A DNA stretch of 64,000 nucleotides from an uncultured Nitrososphaerota archaeon (GCA_963842885.1 CAWJIE010000003.1:384001-448000); one strand, 5' to 3'. Counted from the first letter of the stretch, positions 3,237-50,381 are shown. Program-made: numbers and translations. Notes: generated from the sequence alone by a model not told the origin.

Positions 3237-3713
3237 TCACGGTTTAACGCTCTCCTCGGAATCCGCCTTCTTCAGCATCTCGCCCAGCAGGCTTAGGAGA
3301 AGCTTGCCCTGCTGGGTCAGGCCGTACATCTTGATCGCTCCTGACTCGGCGTACACGGCCACGATGCCATACTTCTCAAGAAGGTCCAGGTCACGGTCCA
3401 CCTCCTTCCAGTCGAGACCTGTCACCTGAGCCAGCTCGGACCTGTGTTTGGGCGTGTCCATGCTCCGCAGGAGTTCGAGCCGCGATCCTGCCCCCTTCAT
3501 CTTCACCATCAGGTCGTAGACGTTGTCGTCGACGCCCGCCTTCTTCAGGGTCCGCCTGCCGTTCCTGTCGACGATGAAGGCCACGCCAACGATGGCCCAG
3601 CTCAGCGCTGCCACTGGGAAGGCTAGGGCGCCGAACTCTCCGCAGCAACTGCGGGTCGCATGGCGTGCCCAGCGCCCATGGATAGAAGGTCGATAGGTAA
3701 TAGGTGTAGCCAA
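3237..3713 (-). CDS. ArsR-like wHTH regulator with N-terminal TM segment (5' end likely frameshifted)
   Basis: TM followed by SRLELLRSM...SELAQVTGLDWKEVDRDLDLLEKYGIV...YGLTQQG. Confidence 0.65.
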   Translation of the reverse strand: MATPITYRPSIHGRWARHATRSCCGEFGALAFPVAALSWAIVGVAFIVDRNGRRTLKKAGVDDNVYDLMVKMKGAGSRLELLRSMDTPKHRSELAQVTGLDWKEVDRDLDLLEKYGIVAVYAESGAIKMYGLTQQGKLLLSLLGEMLKKADSEESVKP

Positions 3714-3866
3714 TGGCGAAAGGAGGACACGATCACGGCAACACGAACGCCGCAGCCAGAGCGACCGTTGAGAGCCTCAATACTGTGAAGATGAAATGCG
3801 CTGTTCTCCTATTAGCTTTTCCCAGACGATACTGGGAAACCTGTAAATGCCATCAGACCACCTTCA

Positions 3867-4538
3867 ATGAAGACACGGGAGACGGATGAGAACATTCAGT
3901 GGCGGACTCAAGGCCATACCTCGGCCTTCGAATTATTCAAGAAGGAGAAAAGGGAAATGCTAGCTGTGAAGAAGGCCAAGGCGTCTCTCGTCGCAGCGGC
4001 GCTAGCGGCAGCGATCCTGGTTCTCGTCTTCGCCCCCGTTGTGCCAGAGAAGGTCACCGCCGACAGGCTGAACGGGGGGCTGCTGTTGACGGACGAGATG
4101 AAGAACCCTGACGTCGGAGCCGCTCCAACGCAGATCACCCAGAGCCCTGCCTTCATGGCCGAGACCCAAGGCAGGACCTACGTATTCGAGGGAGCGGTCA
4201 GCGGTTCCATCACCTATTACACCTTTGAAAGCCTTGGGGACCACGTCGCAACTGCGTGCAATTCCATCATCTATCGAGAGGTAACTGACGTGCTGATCGT
4301 CGGCGAACCACTGGGCAACGCATCCTACATAACCAGCATGACGGAGGTCGAGACGCCCTACCTGGACTTCGGGAACATGACCTTCTCTCATTCTGGCGGC
4401 GTCACCTATCACTGCAGTCAAGAATCCATCGCGATGAAGGACGTGCCCTCTCAGGCCGTTTTCTCCTCCGTGATCTTCGCGGTCAGTGGGCTCGGAGCGG
4501 CTTACGCCCCTGGCATAGGCTACCTCTGGTTCGCTTAA
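3867..4538 (+). CDS. membrane-anchored/secreted hypothetical protein
   Basis: Signal-like hydrophobic stretch after KKAK, C-terminal hydrophobic tail, coding-like codon usage. Confidence 0.55.
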   Translation: MKTRETDENIQWRTQGHTSAFELFKKEKREMLAVKKAKASLVAAALAAAILVLVFAPVVPEKVTADRLNGGLLLTDEMKNPDVGAAPTQITQSPAFMAETQGRTYVFEGAVSGSITYYTFESLGDHVATACNSIIYREVTDVLIVGEPLGNASYITSMTEVETPYLDFGNMTFSHSGGVTYHCSQESIAMKDVPSQAVFSSVIFAVSGLGAAYAPGIGYLWFA

Positions 4539-7940: not shown

Positions 7941-9260
7941 TTGCGCCGGGCAAGCTTGCTCAGAGTCTTGGGTTTCGTGGGGCTCGGGCTGTTGCTGATG
8001 GGCTTGTCGATGCTCGCCAACGCGCATTTCGGTCCTGAGAACGCAATCTTCGGCATGGGGAGCCCGACAACAAGCCAGGGCAACACGACCGACTCTTTCA
8101 CGGTGTTCCTTAAGCCCACCGACAGGATGCTCCTGTCCTACTCCTCCAATTCCTCGAACGTGAGCTTCGATGCCTCAATCATCTCTCTGGCCACCGGTTC
8201 CACCGTGTTCCAAGAGGGCGTTCCCCCTGGCGGCAGCCTCCAGGTGTCCTTTTCGCCTTCTACAAGAGGGGCATATTTGGTCAGGGTCAATCTGTCATCT
8301 TCTTCGCCCAATCAACTGGTGACAAGTATCGTTTCGATTTACGGCGGGACCCCTTCCGACTTTGAAGCGTATGCCTACCTTCTTATCGCCCTGGGCGCGG
8401 CCATGGCCCTGTTGTGGATCGCCGGGTCCAGAAGGGCTCAAGCGGCCGGGCTCACGCACAAATCAGGTCGACAGGAATACCTCGCGGATGGTCAGCAAGG
8501 GCACCGGACCTTCTTCGTCCTGCTAAAGTGGGAGCTCATTGCAAGCAGGAAGGTGTTCTTCGGCCTGCTGGTCTTCTTCCTCATGATGTACAGCGCTGGC
8601 GGGTTCACACCGAACTATCTGAGCTCATCGATAGGTGGGATCGCCCCGACCATAGCCGACCTGTTCAATCCAACCCTCAGGCCCACGTCAGACTGGTTCA
8701 ATCTGTTCCCCATCGTGGTCGCGGTTTCGGCATACAGCTTCTCCTACGAACAGGACAAGCTCATCCTCAGGTCTCTCAAACTCAACCCAATCAGGTCCGC
8801 CACCATCTTCGCTTCGAAGGTCTGCGCCCTCCTGGCGGTGACCTTGGTCCCCATCGCGGTCGCCTTGAGCTTCACCCTCGCGCTGTACGACCCGAGGCTC
8901 TTCCTCGGAGCCCCCCTGCTTGCGTGGGGGAACCTTCCGATGTGGGTCGAAGCCTACATCCTCTACGGATTCGTCATGGTGGGGCTGTCGTTGCTGCCGG
9001 CCGTGTTCTTCGATAACGCCGTCTATGCCTTCGTCGCCCCGTTGTTTGTATCATTCCTGATTCAGACCGAAGGCTTCGGCCTGTATGGCGCGATACCCTC
9101 CGACGTATGGACCACTGTGGTAATGCAGATTCAGAGCTACCGTGACTGGGGTGCAACTCTGGGCAAGACGCTGCCTGCGGTCATCCTAGCAACGGGCATT
9201 CCTCGCCATCTCCCTGATTCTGTTCGAAATCAAGGAGGGAGAGTGACGCGAGTGGCTTGA
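7941..9260 (+). CDS. ABC-2 type transporter permease with N-terminal extracellular domain
   Basis: LLKWEL, SYEQDKLILRSLKLNPIRSATIFASK (ABC-2 E..G.....L..P..R....K pattern), multiple TMs. Confidence 0.7.
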   Translation: MRRASLLRVLGFVGLGLLLMGLSMLANAHFGPENAIFGMGSPTTSQGNTTDSFTVFLKPTDRMLLSYSSNSSNVSFDASIISLATGSTVFQEGVPPGGSLQVSFSPSTRGAYLVRVNLSSSSPNQLVTSIVSIYGGTPSDFEAYAYLLIALGAAMALLWIAGSRRAQAAGLTHKSGRQEYLADGQQGHRTFFVLLKWELIASRKVFFGLLVFFLMMYSAGGFTPNYLSSSIGGIAPTIADLFNPTLRPTSDWFNLFPIVVAVSAYSFSYEQDKLILRSLKLNPIRSATIFASKVCALLAVTLVPIAVALSFTLALYDPRLFLGAPLLAWGNLPMWVEAYILYGFVMVGLSLLPAVFFDNAVYAFVAPLFVSFLIQTEGFGLYGAIPSDVWTTVVMQIQSYRDWGATLGKTLPAVILATGIPRHLPDSVRNQGGRVTRVA

Positions 9261-9315: not shown

Positions 9316-9995
9316 GTGAGCCATCTCAGCAAGAGGTTCGGTTTCACCCTCGCTCTGGACGACGTAAGCATTAAGCTCCCGCAAGGCAACGCGCTCCTGA
9401 TCGTCGGCCCGAACGGGAGCGGGAAGAGCACGTTGCTTAAGGTCCTGTGCGGCATCCTAAGAGCGGCCCAGAGGTTCTCTCGTTCGCGTATTGGGGGTTG
9501 ACCCCTGGAGGGAGCGACATATCCTGTTCTCCAGGGCCACGGCAGCTTTCGAAGACTATGCCTTCCCGGAGCTTGCCAGCGGGGAGGATTATCTCAAGTT
9601 CGTGGCCGAGCTTCGCTGTGTCTCCATCGACCGAAGCGTCGGAGAGATCATGGGCATAGAGGACTTCTGGTCGAAGCCTATCAGAGGCTACTCGTCAGGC
9701 ATGAAAAGGAAGCTCGCGCTCGCGCAGGCGCTGGTCGGCAGGCCGGAGCTGATCATCTTGGACGAGCCACTGGTCGCCCTAGACCGCCAGTCGAAGGACC
9801 AGCTGATCGACATATTGGCTCAGAGGAGGGCTACAGGGACGACCCTGGTCATATGCAGCCACATACTGACAGGTCTGGAGCGGATAGCCACGGAGGATGA
9901 TCGTGCTTATCAACGGAAAGATGATCTATGAGAGCGATATCTCCGATTCCAGTGCAGCGCTCGAGGAAACCTACAAGATCTTGGAAACAACGTGA
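9316..9995 (+). CDS. ABC transporter ATP-binding protein (frameshifted)
   Basis: Walker A GPNGSGKST, signature YSSGMKRK, Walker B LIILDEP and H-loop spread over three frames. Confidence 0.85.
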
Positions 9996-10329: not shown

Positions 10330-11240
10330 GCCATGATTCTGACATGCCGTAAACCCATGCCAACATGTCACGCTCCACTTGGTTGCGTTGTTAGGACCAA
10401 GCACCCGCGCACCCTGACCGGGTTCCACCGATACGGGACGCAAATGCACGTTGTCCATCTAATCACCATCGATGAGGTCCGCTTTCCGAGAACTCGCCTT
10501 TCCATGGCCCTGGCTGTGTCGGTTTGGCCGTATCCTGCGAAGTTATCTGAGGAGCATCGAATGCGTCACCAAAAGGCGTTGTGGGACGGGGAAAGACGTT
10601 AACTGCCATGGTCCGTTCTGGCAGGTACTCTATTACTCTTGAGTCGCTGGGACATCCGTCGACGCGCGCAGGTGGCTGAATTCGCGGAACGGATTGAGTC
10701 GAAGCACCTTTCCTTTCCTTGCCTTGCCATGGGCCACTTTCCCCCGCTGAACCGTTCCATGAACCCACGGACGAGCCCGGAATGAGCAAGGATGTGATGA
10801 TGGGCTGGCATTCGCACGGCGATGAATTGGCATGATTCGAGGGGCATCGATTCGACGAGCTCGGCGAATGTAAAACGAGGCATGTCTGACTTAGCAACGA
10901 AGCTGAACCGGGCTTGGCATGTTCGACTGGACTTCACTTGATGGGACGGGCTGGACCTAGCTTGGTAGTGGAAGAAAGCTCGTTCGGCTCACAGCTCAAT
11001 TCGGGGACGACGGTTGGCGACCTTGCGACGCACAGCCAAGACATCGGTGGACCGGGAACGTTATACTAACAGAAATGAATCAAAAAATACACAGGGAAGA
11101 CATGCAAGAATGTCCGCAATGGTATAACATCTCAACTCGGAACTCGGCTCTTGGAGCCGATCGGGCTGAGTGCACGAGCTCTATGTAATTCCGGCCACCA
11201 TACGGGCTACCGGAAAATGGGCGTCAGACATCAAACGTAA
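10330..11240. repeat. degenerate pentanucleotide-periodic non-coding tract
   Basis: ACCTT-TCCTT-TCCTT-GCCTT-GCCAT at 10706-10730; G at a fixed 5-bp phase in 23 of 31 pentamers over 10746-10900, including 11 in a row; no convincing ORF. Confidence 0.6.
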
Positions 11241-11245
11241 GGGGT

Positions 11246-11279
11246 TAAGTACATGGGGATGCACTAAGTACACGGGGAT
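11246..11279 (+). promoter_or_regulatory. 15-bp direct repeat upstream of the AAA+ ATPase gene
   Basis: TAAGTACATGGGGAT (11246-11260) and TAAGTACACGGGGAT (11265-11279). Confidence 0.5.
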
Positions 11280-11287
11280 ATCCCACG

Positions 11288-12421
11288 TACTTCGAAGAGG
11301 CCCCGAAGACGGACAGGAAGGACATGTTCGACTACTCCGAGGAGTTCCAGAAGATGACCTCCTCTCTATCGGGAGGGGCGAGGATGATCATAATAAAGGG
11401 AAGGAGGAGGACGGGCAAGACTTCTCTCCTCCTGTCCTCCCTGAACGAACTCGGGCGCCCGTACGTCGTTCTTGATGGGAGGGCCTTCTCCTCCTCCCCT
11501 CAGGTGAGGCGGGAGGAGTTCGTCAAGCTGCTCGAGGACGGCCTGAACGAGTTCCTGAGGAGGGAGAGGAGGCTGGGCGCCAAGGTGATCGATGCGCTAA
11601 AGCACGTCCAGGGCCTCGAACGAACCTCAGGTGCCATCCCCGGCCTCTCCCTTCGCTGGGGGCCCCTGCCCCGGGACGCCGTGAACGTCTCCTCCATCTT
11701 CGATGCCCTTTCAGACGAAGCGGCCAGACAGAAGACCTCCTTTATCATCGCCATAGACGAAGCGCAGGAGTTCAGGAAGGTCATGCGCTACGACCTGACG
11801 AGCGTGCTCGCGCACGCGTACGACTACTGCCCGGGACTCAAGTTCGTGGTCACCGGCTCGGAGGCGGGGATGCTCCACAAGTTCCTTAGGGTCGATGACC
11901 CCGAAGCCCCCCTCTTCGGACGGGCGATGGTCGAGATAGAGCTCTCCGGCCTGACGAAGGAGAGGAGCGTCGAGTACCTTCGGGAAGGGTTCAGGCAGGT
12001 GGGGATGGAGGTGCCTGGGGATGTGCTCGAAGGAGCCCACCTGAGGTTCGACGGGATAATAGGCTGGCTGACCTACCTCGGCTTCAGGGCCAGGGAGGAG
12101 AGGGAGCTCGACCAGAAGGTGATTGAGGAGACGGCCTCGCTGGCATCCAAGATGGCGGCCTCGGAGTTCAGGAACTTCCTGGGCCTGTACAGGTCGGAGA
12201 GGTATCGGACAGTGATGAAGAGCCTGGCTGGAGGGAGCCTTTCGTGGGCGGACCTGAAGAGGGCGATCGAGTCCAAGGAGGGGATGAGGGTCGGACAGGG
12301 GGAGGTCACTAAGGTGCTCCACAACCTCGAGGACGCCGGCTTTGTGGCGAAGGATGAGGGAGGAGCTTATTCCATCTCGGAGCCGATGATAAGAGAAGCG
12401 GCCTCGAAGGGGATCATATAG
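11288..12421 (+). CDS. archaeal AAA+/STAND-like ATPase (ATPase_2 type) with C-terminal wHTH
   Basis: In-frame YFEEAPKTDRKDMFD upstream of the ATG at 11324, Walker A GRRRTGKTS, Walker B IAIDEAQ, VTGSEAG, PLFGR, GIIGWL. Confidence 0.85.
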   Translation, partial: YFEEAPKTDRKDMFDYSEEFQKMTSSLSGGARMIIIKGRRRTGKTSLLLSSLNELGRPYVVLDGRAFSSSPQVRREEFVKLLEDGLNEFLRRERRLGAKVIDALKHVQGLERTSGAIPGLSLRWGPLPRDAVNVSSIFDALSDEAARQKTSFIIAIDEAQEFRKVMRYDLTSVLAHAYDYCPGLKFVVTGSEAGMLHKFLRVDDPEAPLFGRAMVEIELSGLTKERSVEYLREGFRQVGMEVPGDVLEGAHLRFDGIIGWLTYLGFRAREERELDQKVIEETASLASKMAASEFRNFLGLYRSERYRTVMKSLAGGSLSWADLKRAIESKEGMRVGQGEVTKVLHNLEDAGFVAKDEGGAYSISEPMIREAASKGII

Positions 12422-13119
12422 GAAGGATATGGTACATAGCCCTGCACTTGGTATATGGACATAGCGCGAGAGGGGCCGAGGCGAAGGACCCCGCCTTTAA
12501 TCTGCCATCGAGCGACAAGAGGTGGGTCCTTTTGCGTCGCTGGCGGAAGACAAGGCTCTGCATCTCCGCTGTGATGGTTCCAAGCCGGCCCGTCAATCGG
12601 TATTTAAGGCAAAGGCGCGGCCATTGAGGAGTATTTAAGGAGAAGACGATGGCGGTCGAGCTCTATTGTGAGGTTTCGAATCAGCCATAGATGGAAGACC
12701 TCGGATCTCGTCCAGAGAAGCGAAGGTGGATGCGGGATGCCAAAGGGCAGACGCGTAAACGGTTTGAAGCGATGGAACCATGCACGGCCTCCTTTTAACG
12801 CACTTTGCAGGGGCTTCCGGGGGCTCAGGAGCCGCCTTGGCCTAGATGATGAGCTTCCCTGGCGTTAGCGCGGGGAGGAATGCACGACCTCAGGCATTGC
12901 CCCTTTTCCTACGGCAGCGACAGCCATCCTGTCGGCCTAGGTAGGTCTCTAGTGTCGGTCCCATGTCATGATGTAGAGCGGGGGACGGCCATCCGGATCG
13001 AGACAGGCTCCCTAACCAGATGGAGTGCGCTATTGAGCTGGTTTGATCGTGAAGACGATGTTGGCAGTCCCGTGCATGTACGGGTTCCTTTCACCAGACT
13101 CCACTAAACTCTCGGCTCA

Positions 13120-13896
13120 ATGAGACAAAGTGCCCTCTTGAGTTATTTTGAAGATGAGACGGAGCTTAGCAGGGCCGGGGCATCCGAGCTCCGTCCCCGT
13201 CGATTTTGCTAACGCGCCCCTAGGATGAGACGGAACGCCTTTTCAGGCCGATTTGGAGATGAGACAGCGTTAGCAGGTCCAGGGCGTCAAAATTTCGGTC
13301 CCCCTTTCCTGCTAACGCGACCGTCAGATGAAACAAGATGCCATTTTGGGCCATTTGGACGATGAGACGATGTTAGCAAAACCGGGGGCGCCAGTTTCTC
13401 CTCCGTCTAGACTGCCATTGCACCCGTCGGGTGAGACGAACGGCGCTTCCAGGTCGGTTCTGAGATGGGACGATATCAGTAGTTGGAGGGAGTCGAAATT
13501 CCGTCCTCTGCGATTTGCTATAGTCACCGCTTAACGAAACAAAGCGCCCTATAGGGCCGTTTTGACGATGAAACGGGCTCTAGCAAAGCCAAGGCCTCGA
13601 AATTTTGCCCCCTCCGACTTGCTAGAGTCGCGGCTTCAATGAGACAAAGCGCCCCCTTGGGTCATTTTGGCTACGAGACGAACTCTAGCAAAACCAGGGG
13701 TGTTCGAATCGTCTCCTCCGGGCTAATAACGCATCTATCTGATGAGACGAACGGCGCTTTTAGCCCGTCCTGACAATGAGACGATGTTATTAGCCACGAG
13801 GCCTCAAAATTCCCCGCCCTCCGCGCTAATAACGCCCCCTTCCGATGAGACGGAACGCCTTTTTGGCCCATTTTAACGATGAAACGATGTTATTAG
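13120..13896. repeat. 8-unit 103-105 bp degenerate structured tandem array
   Basis: ATGARAC-like boxes at 13120/13154, 13225/13259, 13328/13362, 13431/13465, 13534/13568, 13639/13673, 13742/13776, 13845/13879 (spacing 34 then 69-71), flanked by inverted arms. Confidence 0.9.
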
Positions 13897-14492
13897 GGCC
13901 GAGGGCGGTTCGTCGCCGCCATCGCCATGTCGTCGCCCCAAGCCCAACTGGCTGGCGTTCTTATGGGGGCTCATCTGAACCACTGGTCTTCGATCACGTC
14001 CTAGAGCTCTTCTTTGAACGGTTCTTTAGTGGCAAGCGGGAGTCTCCGGTGGCGGCTCTGGTTCCGGCTCGCTCTTCGCCTGGGATAGTAGAGCTTGACG
14101 GACCTACTTCTAGCATTCGCGTTGCCGACCCTCATCGCAATGCTCTAGCTAACGTAACCGTTCAAGACCTTCCGAAACTCTACCATCTCCACTATGACAA
14201 CGGCAGAAGCATGAGGGGCGATTTAACCACCCATCTTCAGTCGAGGGGGCTGAGCGCGGAAGCTGCTTCAGGTCCTCTTCTTCCGTTGTGTTCCATCATC
14301 GGGACTTCTTGGCAAGTGTCCGGTTCGGGACCTGCAGCTAGGCTCGGGCAGCGAAATCCCCGTCCGGAAGTGAGGAGTCTAGAAGGCCAGACTTTGGCAT
14401 GTCCTTTGTCCGTCGTATCATGGAGTCTGATCTGCCAATCGACAGAGGATCTTCTCCCCAGCTCTTTTAAGTTGAGCAATGACCGAGTATAC

Positions 14493-14618
14493 ATGACAGA
14501 GAACAAAACCGATGACAAGGATTCCGACGAGGTCGAGCTGCGCGCGGCCGTCAAGGAGCGTTTTGAAATCAGAAGAGAGATAGAAGGGCTCCGGCGCGAA
14601 GTCGGGAGCCTGTCCTGA
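14493..14618 (+). CDS. small charged coiled-coil-like protein (41 aa), convergent with the integrase
   Basis: MTENKTDDKDSDEVELRAAVKERFEIRREIEGLRREVGSLS preceded by TATA-like TTTTAAG near 14465. Confidence 0.35.
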   Translation: MTENKTDDKDSDEVELRAAVKERFEIRREIEGLRREVGSLS

Positions 14619-14623
14619 CCCCG

Positions 14624-15997
14624 CTACTTGCCGAGCAGGACCCGCACGACGTCCGGCGGGATTGCCTTCCCTTCTTGCACGTACTTCGTCAATATCCGCC
14701 GGGTGCGTTCGTCGTTTTCCTCCTGCCTGGCCTCGAGCTCTTCTATCCTTCTCTGTTGCTTCATCAATTCCGGATCGGTTCCCTCTACGATCAGAGGGAG
14801 CTCCTCGTGAATCGGTGCTCCGCAGCCCCCGCAGAACTCGTTCATCCTAGGGTTCTCCCGCCGGCAGTTCGGGCAGAGGACAAACTCCGGCTGGGGCTTC
14901 TGGGTCTCGACGCCACCGTACACGTTCTCCAAGACTTCGTTGACGTCCTGTGCCGCGAGCTCGATGTACACCGCCGGCATCTTGCTTCCGGGCGCCCACC
15001 CGAACTTCCTCCTCATTATCTCCTCGTTCAGGTTGTGCTTGGCGTCTTTCGTGGCGGACATGTGCCGGAAGATGTTGGGATGCACGGGCCTCGGGATCCC
15101 CGCCACCTCGCCCAGCCGGCGCAGCGCCCTGTAGCAGGCGTCGTAGCGCCAGCGCTTGCAGACCAGCCTTCCTCGTTCGGTCATCAGCCAGAGCGGGGCC
15201 TTAGGGTCATCCCTGTATGGGTGCGTCTCAAGCCACTGCGTGAGCAGCATCCTCGACCTCTGCACCACCAGCCGTCGCCCGACCGTTTTCGTCATCTCAT
15301 CGGTGAAGTCGATCAGTACCCTGTACTCCTCCTTGCCGTTCCTGATGACCCGCTCATGCCTGATGTTGCCTATCAGGAGGCGCAGAAGCTCGCCCGGCCG
15401 GAGACCCAGCTCCTCGGCGACGGCGAGGAACGCCTTAATCATGATGTCGCTGGTCGCCCTGATGAGAGCTTCGAACTCCTCCTCCTCTATCACCGAGGGC
15501 CTCTTCTTGTCCGATTGCTTGAGGTTCGCCTTAAGCCCGTCGACCAAGTCCGGGTAGTGGTGGTCCTCCCTCCACTTCTCGTACTTTCCCTTGGGAGCCT
15601 TCAGCCACTGGTAGTATCGCTTGATCGTTATGACTATGTCGCGCTCGGTACGCGGTTCGTAGATGCCAGAGTAGAGCCACTTCTTGAGCTCGGCCACTTT
15701 CTTCTGGTTCATCCTGATCAGGGTCGTCCTGTTGTCGAACGCCCACATGGCCAGGTCCTGTAGGATGATGACGTACTTGGCCACCCTCACGTCGGATATG
15801 TTCTGGCCTATCAGGACGTCCACGAACCTCAGGATGGAGCGGCAGTCCTTCGGGCTTATCCTCCTCGGCCTTCCGGTCTTCTGCTCGATGGTGCCTTCCC
15901 GCGCTGACCGCTTGAGATGGGCGATCGCGCGCTCGATGCGCCGCTTCCCGCCAAAGATGTCGTGGTCCTCGACCTGCGCACCCGCGATTTGGTTCAT
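14624..15997 (-). CDS. tyrosine recombinase/integrase with C-terminal Zn ribbon (frame open to 16138)
   Basis: GLRPGEL (R), TKT (K), HPNIFRH, FGW, PAVY (Y), then CPNC...CGGCG and a coiled coil. Confidence 0.9.
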   Translation of the reverse strand: MNQIAGAQVEDHDIFGGKRRIERAIAHLKRSAREGTIEQKTGRPRRISPKDCRSILRFVDVLIGQNISDVRVAKYVIILQDLAMWAFDNRTTLIRMNQKKVAELKKWLYSGIYEPRTERDIVITIKRYYQWLKAPKGKYEKWREDHHYPDLVDGLKANLKQSDKKRPSVIEEEEFEALIRATSDIMIKAFLAVAEELGLRPGELLRLLIGNIRHERVIRNGKEEYRVLIDFTDEMTKTVGRRLVVQRSRMLLTQWLETHPYRDDPKAPLWLMTERGRLVCKRWRYDACYRALRRLGEVAGIPRPVHPNIFRHMSATKDAKHNLNEEIMRRKFGWAPGSKMPAVYIELAAQDVNEVLENVYGGVETQKPQPEFVLCPNCRRENPRMNEFCGGCGAPIHEELPLIVEGTDPELMKQQRRIEELEARQEENDERTRRILTKYVQEGKAIPPDVVRVLLGK

Positions 15998-16217
15998 GAT
16001 CGGGTACGGCGAATTACCTTTTAAGACGGGTAAGGGATTTGGATGTCTTCGTGGAGGCGCGCCCACCGCATTTTCACTGCTACCGGAATGCCCAGGGTTA
16101 GTCATGATGGCAGCTGCTGCCCCGCATGGCGACACCATGATGGCCCGGATTCCGCCATCTCCTTGGCAACATTCATAAGGCGATTCAGCCGAAAAATACT
16201 AGAATCGGAGAGAGGGC

Positions 16218-49983: not shown

Positions 49984-50075
49984 GCGACAGTCGTCCAGCC
50001 TGGTCTAGGACATCAGCCCTCCATGATGTGAATCGGGGAAAGCTGGTAACACGGGTTCAAATCCCGTCTGTCGCA
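49984..50075 (+). tRNA. tRNA-Gly(TCC) with 17-nt intron at 37/38 (50024-50040)
   Basis: GCGACAG/CTGTCGC acceptor stem, GTCC/GGAC D stem, TCAGC/GCTGG anticodon stem, GGTTCAAAT T loop, BHB motif. Confidence 0.85.
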
Positions 50076-50381
50076 CCTTGATGCCCGAATTGATCTGTGT
50101 TGACAGCTGGAAGACCTTTTCAATTGATTTTTTCCCTCGGGCTATGTCCCGTCATTGACCGGCGAAAGCGTCTGCCTGGAGACGCCCGTATAGCTCCGGC
50201 TAAAGGAATTCGACGAAGCCTAGGTCGCGAAGGACCTTGAGCTGCTGCCTGATCTTCGCCTTTATGTTGCGGTTGTCAGGATGAAGCCCTCAACGACGCT
50301 CCGAACTGATATATCTTGTCAAAGGTGAACTGGGCAAACAGTCGTATGTGCGTTGGCAAGGCACGTCCCGGGATCTGCAAG

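Follow-up and report, generated by a model that had tools for sequence, protein, structure and literature searches.

A tandem array of co-varying stem-loop units in a Nitrososphaerota archaeon, possibly an orphaned RNA array of TIGR-like design

We analysed a 64,000-nucleotide stretch of DNA (the window) from an uncultured Nitrososphaerota archaeon (GCA_963842885.1, CAWJIE010000003.1:384001-448000), whose assembly measures 2.03 Mb and is 87% complete, and focus here on a tandem array of structured units that lies between the genes of an archaeal-type ATPase and a tyrosine recombinase. The array spans 13087-13914 on the + strand and consists of eight head-to-tail units of 103–105 bp, each with two GATGAGAC-like heptamer boxes (16 boxes across the eight units). 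An earlier note on this DNA had described eight units of that length, and both the sequence and a scan for the boxes bear it out; the extent it gave, 13120-13896, holds for the array but not for its ends, as the last unit reaches about 13914, the first starts at 13087 and a ninth, decayed unit lies in register upstream of it at 12989-13085. The first box of each unit begins at 13120, 13225, 13328, 13431 (the variant GTGAGAC, in unit 4), 13534, 13639, 13742 and 13845. The second lies exactly 34 bp further on in every one of the eight units, and from there it is 69 or 71 bp to the first box of the next, as the earlier note had also seen.

Unit 1 (13087-13190, boxes at 13120 and 13154) has a partly decayed stem and scores 79.6 bits against a covariance model that was built from the window units, whose own scores hold by construction. 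Unit 2 (13192-13294, boxes at 13225 and 13259) carries the arms TGCTAACGC/GCGTTAGCA, and unit 3 (13295-13397, boxes at 13328 and 13362) the arms TGCTAAC/GTTAGCA with an outer CCCCC/GGGGG. Unit 4 (13398-13500) is partly decayed, its boxes reading GTGAGAC at 13431 and ATGGGAC at 13465, and unit 5 (13501-13604, boxes at 13534 and 13568) contains the inner palindrome GCCCTATAGGGC. The arms are TTGCTAGAGT/ACTCTAGCAA in unit 6 (13605-13708, boxes at 13639 and 13673) and GGCTAATAAC/GTTATTAGCC in unit 7 (13709-13811, boxes at 13742 and 13776), and unit 8 (13812-13914, boxes at 13845 and 13879) has 20-nt arms, CCGCCCTCCGCGCTAATAAC/GTTATTAGGGCCGAGGGCGG. All five inverted arm pairs listed in the earlier note are present at the coordinates it gave, as is the palindrome at 13546 that it had placed between the boxes. 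The decayed unit upstream, also on the + strand, retains a box-2-like TGAAGAC at 13050 followed by GATGTTGGCA and matches the covariance model weakly (6.3 bits, E = 0.78, filters off).

From 5' to 3' on the + strand, each unit runs through a C-rich clamp, an arm, a segment A, box 1, an inner hairpin, a segment B, box 2, the complementary arm, a G-rich clamp and a linker. The arms, of which the 5' one has a conserved CTA(A) core, vary in sequence between units with their complementarity kept, and continue outward as the C-rich and G-rich clamps over up to 20 nt at 90% complementarity (unit 8). Among 13 units from three loci, that is, the window and the two further arrays described below, mean pairwise identity is 0.83 for box 1 (GATGAGAC) and 0.81 for box 2, and the conserved box, taken as an 8-mer, reads GAUGAGAC. 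Segment A, ahead of box 1, is an unpaired and variable stretch of 8–9 nt, with 12 different sequences among the 13 units (mean pairwise identity 0.40); segment B, ahead of box 2, is semi-conserved (8 nt, AUUUUGAC-like or ATTTTGAC-like, mean pairwise identity 0.59, 11 different sequences among the 13) and forms pairs with the bases that follow box 1. The inner hairpin between the boxes has a T-rich loop, and the linkers between units are short and A/T-rich (TCRAAATTY). All eight window units, and the four good units found elsewhere, contain two copies of a segment of roughly 8–9 nt followed by GATGAGAC, spaced 34 nt apart.

Tandem Repeats Finder reports nothing for the array because its units are only roughly 70% alike in alignment, and a three-box pattern finds 4 matches in the window as against 0 in 100 shuffles. 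No open reading frame (ORF) of more than 68 amino acids crosses the array, in agreement with the non-coding nature claimed for it, and a scan of 11000-16000 against Rfam at E ≤ 10 returned four chance-level matches and no known family on the array. With no tandem repeat, units about 70% alike and no invariant repeat of at least 24 nt, a CRISPR array was rejected, as it had been in the earlier note; cas genes were not searched for. A TATA-like TTTTAA upstream of the array, at 12793-12798, could be its promoter.

The structure that we tested comprises the clamp (P1), the arm (P2) and the inner hairpin (P3). In the eight window units, 83.0% of cells are paired compared to 75.0 ± 1.8% in column shuffles, none of 500 of which reaches the observed value, with the proviso that the units are duplicates of each other and that the shuffle statistics, like a binomial p of 0.0016, overstate independence. 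Sliding the 3' partners by 1–3 columns lowers pairing to 32.7–51.5%, and both sides have changed in 11 of the 22 pairs. Across all 13 units, 80.4% of cells are paired, compared to 33.6–48.3% when slid, and both sides have changed in 12 of 23 pairs. The combination of fixed spacing and co-varying arms on which the earlier note rested its case is therefore real (34 bp in eight of eight units; 80–83% paired compared to 33–52% slid).

The non-Watson–Crick cells tell the strands apart: read on the + strand, 48 are G-T and 21 A-C (35 and 17 without the lower inner helix). As a site bound in duplex form would be expected to show no such bias, the excess speaks for a fold of one strand, and therefore for folding of the + strand, as RNA or single-stranded DNA, in line with the single-strand fold suggested before. 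Per-unit folding energies are similar for both strands and pick neither. Where neighbouring units share arms, the arm of one also pairs with the arm of the next; at junctions where the arm sequence changes, only the pairing within a unit survives, in a by-eye reading of the unit sequences, and thus the within-unit hairpin is the one that is kept. The array is real and under selection for a + strand fold.

Within its own genome, the covariance model matches this array only. Among 61 relatives it returned three matches at E ≤ 0.1, in G000, G004 and, at chance level, G017 (20.9 bits), and searches of the whole order (36 genomes) and of 151 genomes of the class each gave the same two, G000 and G004. 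The only other genome with real units in these sets is that of the congener G004, where two are good and one is decayed. Public contigs were searched with the pattern ATGARACN{27}ATGARACN{62,64}RTGARAC and the matches screened with the covariance model: none of 24 loci in genome contigs (genome_contigs) passed, viral contigs (viral_contigs) held no locus, and metagenome contigs (metagenome_contigs) held at least 118 matching stretches, with one real array among the 80 loci listed. This array, on the contig L064, has two units of 77 bits each. A second pattern, ATGARACN{27}ATGARACGAT, gave 21 loci in viral contigs, none of which passed. On the metagenome contig L110, a weak match to the model at 1500-2100 is false and belongs to an unrelated 37-bp tandem satellite (..CATGAGACTATACTGCACTAACG..). 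Homologous arrays, for which the earlier note had proposed a search, thus exist elsewhere, in G004 and L064, and their arms (CTACTAAAA/TTTTAGT-type in G004) differ again and are still complementary.

At about 90–97% identity, the window's array also occurs on contigs of four metagenomes from as many studies (soil, peat and freshwater), and its unit content differs among them, with units missing or replaced; gaps in the coverage of the array in some sequencing runs are not taken as missing units. One contig joins 12819 to 13500, skipping 680 bp, and in three a junction links 13370 and 13710 by way of 30 different letters, a new arm among them. Before reaching the integrase, at about 14209, contigs from two metagenomes part from the window sequence. 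The 12819-13500 deletion variant begins just downstream of the TTTTAA at 12793-12798.

The only conserved neighbour of the array is a gene that we call ORF A, upstream of which lies ORF B. In L064, 17 nt separate the end of the array from the stop codon of ORF A, a minus-strand frame of 264 amino acids, which itself follows ORF B after 14 nt in an operon-like arrangement; ORF B is cut off by the end of the contig. In G004, ORF B is missing and the ORF A homologue lacks its N-terminus. The window retains a 3'-end remnant of ORF A, a gene similar to the ParB helix-turn-helix (HTH) family, at 13897-14069 on the minus strand, with no intact frame: blastn aligns 8037-8318 of the G004 contig L022 with 13740-14024 of the window at 65% identity and tblastx reaches 13977-14069, and the similarity to the ORF A 3' end covers only some 130–170 nt. 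Elsewhere in the window's genome we found no ORF A at E ≤ 1 and no ORF B. A parB-like gene is thus present in the locus in L064 only, among the three. On L022, some 4 kb upstream of the G004 array (3275-3913), lies an ORF of 212 amino acids with an HNH domain closest to those of IscB and Cas9d (E about 2 × 10−8), followed by a CFI-box-CTERM domain (E = 1.5 × 10−22).

Full-length homologues of ORF B have 458–464 amino acids, of which residues 29–137 match models of ParB, RepB and Spo0J, followed by a P/Q-rich linker and a zinc ribbon. These matches lie below the cut-offs, with TIGR00180 at E = 2.8 × 10−8 for the homologue P0001 (33.8 bits, cut-off 58.45), RepB at E = 5.6 × 10−8 and Noc at E = 1.9 × 10−7; Pfam ParB_N reaches E = 0.066. 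For ORF A, a profile search of 1.84 billion representatives gave three matches: its own cluster, a spurious chlorophyll-binding protein and P0010, which matches the N-terminal half (E = 8.2 × 10−5 over the whole library) and itself matches the ParB HTH domain at 22.0 bits compared to a cut-off of 22.6. Both families are tiny, with three homologues of ORF B and five of ORF A among 5.8 billion proteins; the ORF B homologues P0001, P0002 and P0003 lie on contigs of 5.8, 3.6 and 5.7 kb. Queried over the genomes of the phylum, ORF A found none in 401, in a search without positive control, and neither ORF found anything in viral contigs, as single sequences or as alignments. Sequence and profile searches of the PDB and both Atlas searches gave nothing usable; ORF A matches nothing in PADLOC or PHROGs, and ORF B nothing in PADLOC and one unnamed PHROGs family at its zinc-ribbon region. 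AlphaFold2 models are too poor to use, with a mean predicted local distance difference test (pLDDT) score of 35.4 for ORF B and 44.2 for ORF A.

In five related genomes, similarity to the window extends up to about 11128 and is taken up again at about 16159, just past the integrase, where synteny resumes; within this span they match nothing except for the array piece of G004 and a 112-bp piece in G002. The ATPase, the array and the integrase therefore form one island of roughly 5 kb (11129-16158), absent from the five relatives, that also holds the gene remnant and is probably a decayed integrated element. Its edges share no direct repeat, att-like, of more than 10 bp (the longest shared word has 10 bp). 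In its left part, the ATPase gene (11324-12421, + strand) encodes an archaeal-type ATPase (PF01637, E = 2.3 × 10−12; PF21100, E = 5.5 × 10−11) with a C-terminal MCM_C winged helix, and it is not conserved beside the other two arrays. The same ATPase has weak PADLOC matches to the candidate defence families PDC-S27 (E = 4.2 × 10−9) and PDC-S01. At the right edge, 0.7 kb from the array as the earlier note had it, the tyrosine recombinase gene (14624-16138, minus strand) encodes 504 amino acids with a C-terminal zinc ribbon (PF00589, E = 3.3 × 10−10); a XerA-like model matches at E = 1.3 × 10−13, far below its cut-off, and queries of viral contigs with the integrase, as a single sequence and as an alignment, returned nothing.

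Between array and integrase, the piece at 14161-14272 is the 112-bp match, 90% identical to G002:C100:1086-1197 in dissimilar surroundings. It may be a junction of mobile DNA, and the point at about 14209 where contigs from two metagenomes depart from the window falls inside it. A 41-codon ORF at 14493-14618, rich in charged residues and convergent with the integrase gene, has a TTTTAA roughly 30 bp upstream and is the tail of a long, spurious-looking frame (13845-14618). Outside the island, between it and an ABC-2 permease gene, an ORF of 146 amino acids at 9491-9931 aligns with an ABC-transporter ATPase domain over the C-terminal part of that domain alone (profile positions 91–136 of 137) and may be a truncated or frameshifted gene. 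The sole tRNA of the window, tRNA-Gly(TCC) at 49984-50077, is 94 nt long, which suggests an intron.

The system that the array resembles most in layout is TIGR-Tas. As Faure et al. 2025 (PMC12045711) set out, the stem-loop form of TIGR arrays, which comprises tigRNA arrays of TasA/TasR and beside which dual-repeat arrays are the other form, has flanks that are variable yet consistently palindromic, carries box C, a spacer and box D twice per hairpin with a linker between, and is cut at the linkers into single stem-loop RNAs whose partner is a Nop-domain protein. The same text describes tasParB, a parB-like gene that shares operons with tasA, the arrays being placed upstream, downstream or between. 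A later preprint by Xu et al. 2026 (bioRxiv 10.64898/2026.09.09.750476) adds that stems diverge inside one array and that the loop can form a secondary hairpin, names candidate phyla radiation (CPR) bacteria as the only known non-viral hosts with TIGR arrays, and gives the TIGRFinder rule, CNA-N9-YG twice, at most 15 nt apart (CCA, CGA, CTA or CAA, then N9, then TG or CG). As far as these sources extend, reports have so far concerned mainly phages, archaeal viruses and CPR bacteria. The layout of a tigRNA (stem, box C, spacer A, box D, loop or hairpin, box C, spacer B, box D, stem) is like that of our units, and the array shares with TIGR-Tas its tandem hairpins, diverging stems that still pair, short linkers, a mobile-element setting, a motif pattern that occurs twice per hairpin, an inner loop that is itself a hairpin and, in L064, a parB-like gene. 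At the second interval, CCA-N9-UG appears in 5 of the 13 units (as CCA-N9-TG, or CG), at that register on the + strand only.

We tentatively prefer to read the locus as a stem-loop RNA array of TIGR-like design that came from a mobile element and has been orphaned. On this view, the + strand would encode a series of small structured RNAs; a mobile element would have introduced the array, which would now sit as an orphan within a decayed island of about 5 kb. In each unit of roughly 95 nt, a long closing stem of clamp and arm, free to vary as long as pairing holds, would open to an internal loop that displays the two identical GAUGAGAC boxes with the central hairpin between them, and the precursor would be cut at the short A/T-rich linkers. 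By analogy with TIGR-Tas, the two boxes may be bound by a symmetric protein dimer, and the segments that precede them may pair with a nucleic-acid target. Transcription, processing, guide function and kinship with TIGR are thus predictions of this model. Among the three candidates that the earlier note had put forward, a processed small-RNA array appears to fit best; its idea of a system new to science fares less evenly, given that the strict TIGR motifs and a Nop-domain gene were not seen here, but that tandem stem-loop arrays with variable palindromic stems and parB-like neighbours are already known from 2025–2026 in the form of TIGR-Tas. The family may in fact already figure in the supplements of the TIGR papers (figs S12-S14 and locus tables).

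Several observations weigh against this preferred reading. The genome of the window has a single Nop-domain protein (PF01798), a canonical housekeeping Nop5, whose gene also identifies the organism as an archaeon, and four of five relatives have one each and no tas gene; neither ORF A nor ORF B matches Nop in Pfam, NCBIfam, the PDB or the Atlas, a negative to be read with the remoteness of Tas proteins from PF01798 and the end of L064 inside ORF B in mind. The strict TIGRFinder motifs occur in none of the 13 units, as the first box C position reads GCR (GCR-N9-TG) rather than CNA and the gap between intervals is about 20 nt rather than the finder's 15. The last two bases of both 'spacers' are a conserved GA, and the second, segment B, is only semi-variable and paired with the bases after box 1. 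The box is the 8-mer GAUGAGAC, units measure 103–105 nt, and the array sits in an archaeal chromosome with its protein genes decayed, all unlike TIGR-Tas. The paired segments have four genomic matches at two mismatches and none better, which is about chance; no RNA run is among the sequencing runs listed for the array sequence; in L064 the strand that folds is the one that does not code for ORF A and ORF B; and the duplication among units inflates the pairing statistics. As the strict box motifs and a Nop-domain gene are not found in the available sequence, the array is not a proven TIGR member, and we suggest only that it works like a TIGR stem-loop array.

Much of the same evidence can be read differently. 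The fold, the strand bias and the turnover would also suit a new archaeal mobile-element system in which a zinc-ribbon protein with a ParB/Srx-type N domain and a ParB-HTH protein (ORF B and ORF A) use tandem stem-loop RNAs, each with a variable segment of 8–9 nt, as ligands, guides or decoys of a ParB-like complex; the likeness to TIGR would then be convergent, and arrays could outlive the protein genes in host chromosomes. This would agree with ORF A as the sole conserved neighbour with ORF B upstream of it, with the missing Nop domain and strict TIGR motifs and with the very small size of the two protein families. Against it, we know of no ParB-family protein that uses RNA arrays, an effector gene may lie upstream of the point within ORF B where L064 ends, and two genomes keep their arrays although neither has ORF B or an intact ORF A; we consider this system unlikely. 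Centromere repeats lie beside par genes in parA-parB-parS and sopABC, and the array of L064, like sopC of F and parS of P1, stands directly downstream of a ParB-family gene with short conserved boxes in fixed phase. A DNA-level, centromere-like or iteron array, in which the adjoining ParB-like proteins bind the 16 GATGAGAC boxes with their phase of 104 bp (about 10 helical turns), would explain why, in L064, a pair of ParB/RepB-like genes stops directly at the array, why the boxes are the best-conserved parts and why their spacing is fixed. Yet sopC and parS are near-identical duplex sites without strand-specific compensatory change, whereas here the arms co-vary and G-T pairs dominate one strand, and duplex binding accounts neither for the compensatory changes in arms and clamps nor for the excess of 48 G-T over 21 A-C. 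With about 55 bp between them, the arms are also spaced too widely for a single HTH dimer, the 2.2 kb available show no ParA-type gene, and pairing is kept in the two genomes without ORF B and an intact ORF A. A partition array, one of the earlier note's candidates, thus gains a ParB-like neighbour while leaving the strand-specific pairing and the persistence without those genes unexplained, and we regard it as improbable.

The earlier note had also tied the array to the integrase, as a set of recombination sites. Folded single-strand sites of the attC kind, without cassettes, would suit an integrase 0.7 kb away at the island edge, hairpins with two stems split by an unpaired spacer, a unit content that varies between populations and arms that in some units carry ..AAC/GTT.., as attC core sites do. 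Integron attC sites, whose cores read RYYYAAC/GTTRRRY, bound gene cassettes; here there are none, the units have no conserved AAC/GTT in common, the match to the integron-integrase model reaches 13.1 bits compared to a cut-off of 265, and the two direct boxes have no counterpart in attC, and an integron array was accordingly rejected. The integrase stands beside the array in one of three loci, two metagenomes' contigs diverge at about 14209, before reaching it, and neither it nor the ATPase adjoins the other two arrays, so that neither the proposed functional tie nor a co-occurrence with either gene is supported, and attC-like sites are very improbable. Either DNA-level reading, centromere or integrase sites, is less likely than the TIGR-like or the ParB-linked RNA array. 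Archaeal C/D small RNAs (sRNAs) have a box C of RUGAUGA, a box D of CUGA, C'/D' boxes and guides of about 12 nt. The GAUGA of our boxes resembles the core of box C, and two copies per unit and a closing stem are shared, but there is no CUGA at the required places and no 12-nt guide spacing. No Rfam C/D family matches the array (the sole C/D match, at 12842-12889, has 14.4 bits compared to 37) and CUGA is not conserved, and C/D sRNAs were rejected; a kink-turn in the boxes, considered by eye, was likewise dropped, since it would have a bulge of 2 nt and would lack a conserved CUGA. Slimmest of all are the chances of template RNAs for a reverse transcriptase of the UG27 kind. The published unit, as bioRxiv 10.64898/2026.09.22.753630 describes it, fits the anatomy closely, with a main hairpin and an asymmetric internal loop in which short conserved motifs bracket a central stem, structure kept while unit sequence differs and single units gained or lost between related loci. 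In the same source, however, UG27 units measure 135–167 nt and belong to bacteriophages that encode the reverse transcriptase and two accessory genes, whereas ours, 30–60 nt shorter, lie in an archaeon, and no reverse transcriptase or accessory gene was seen among the ORFs scanned beside all three arrays.

The three loci offer a compact, testable case, with units of about 100 nt, two small genes and a clear strand prediction. If ParB-like proteins prove to be the partners, the array would represent a new class of RNA–protein system. If it is TIGR-like, it would extend TIGR-Tas to a soil and peat archaeon and add a divergent box set (GCR/CCR ... UG within GAUGAGAC) with a 20-nt inner hairpin that the published finder would miss, and it would mean that such arrays can persist as orphans after their protein genes have decayed.

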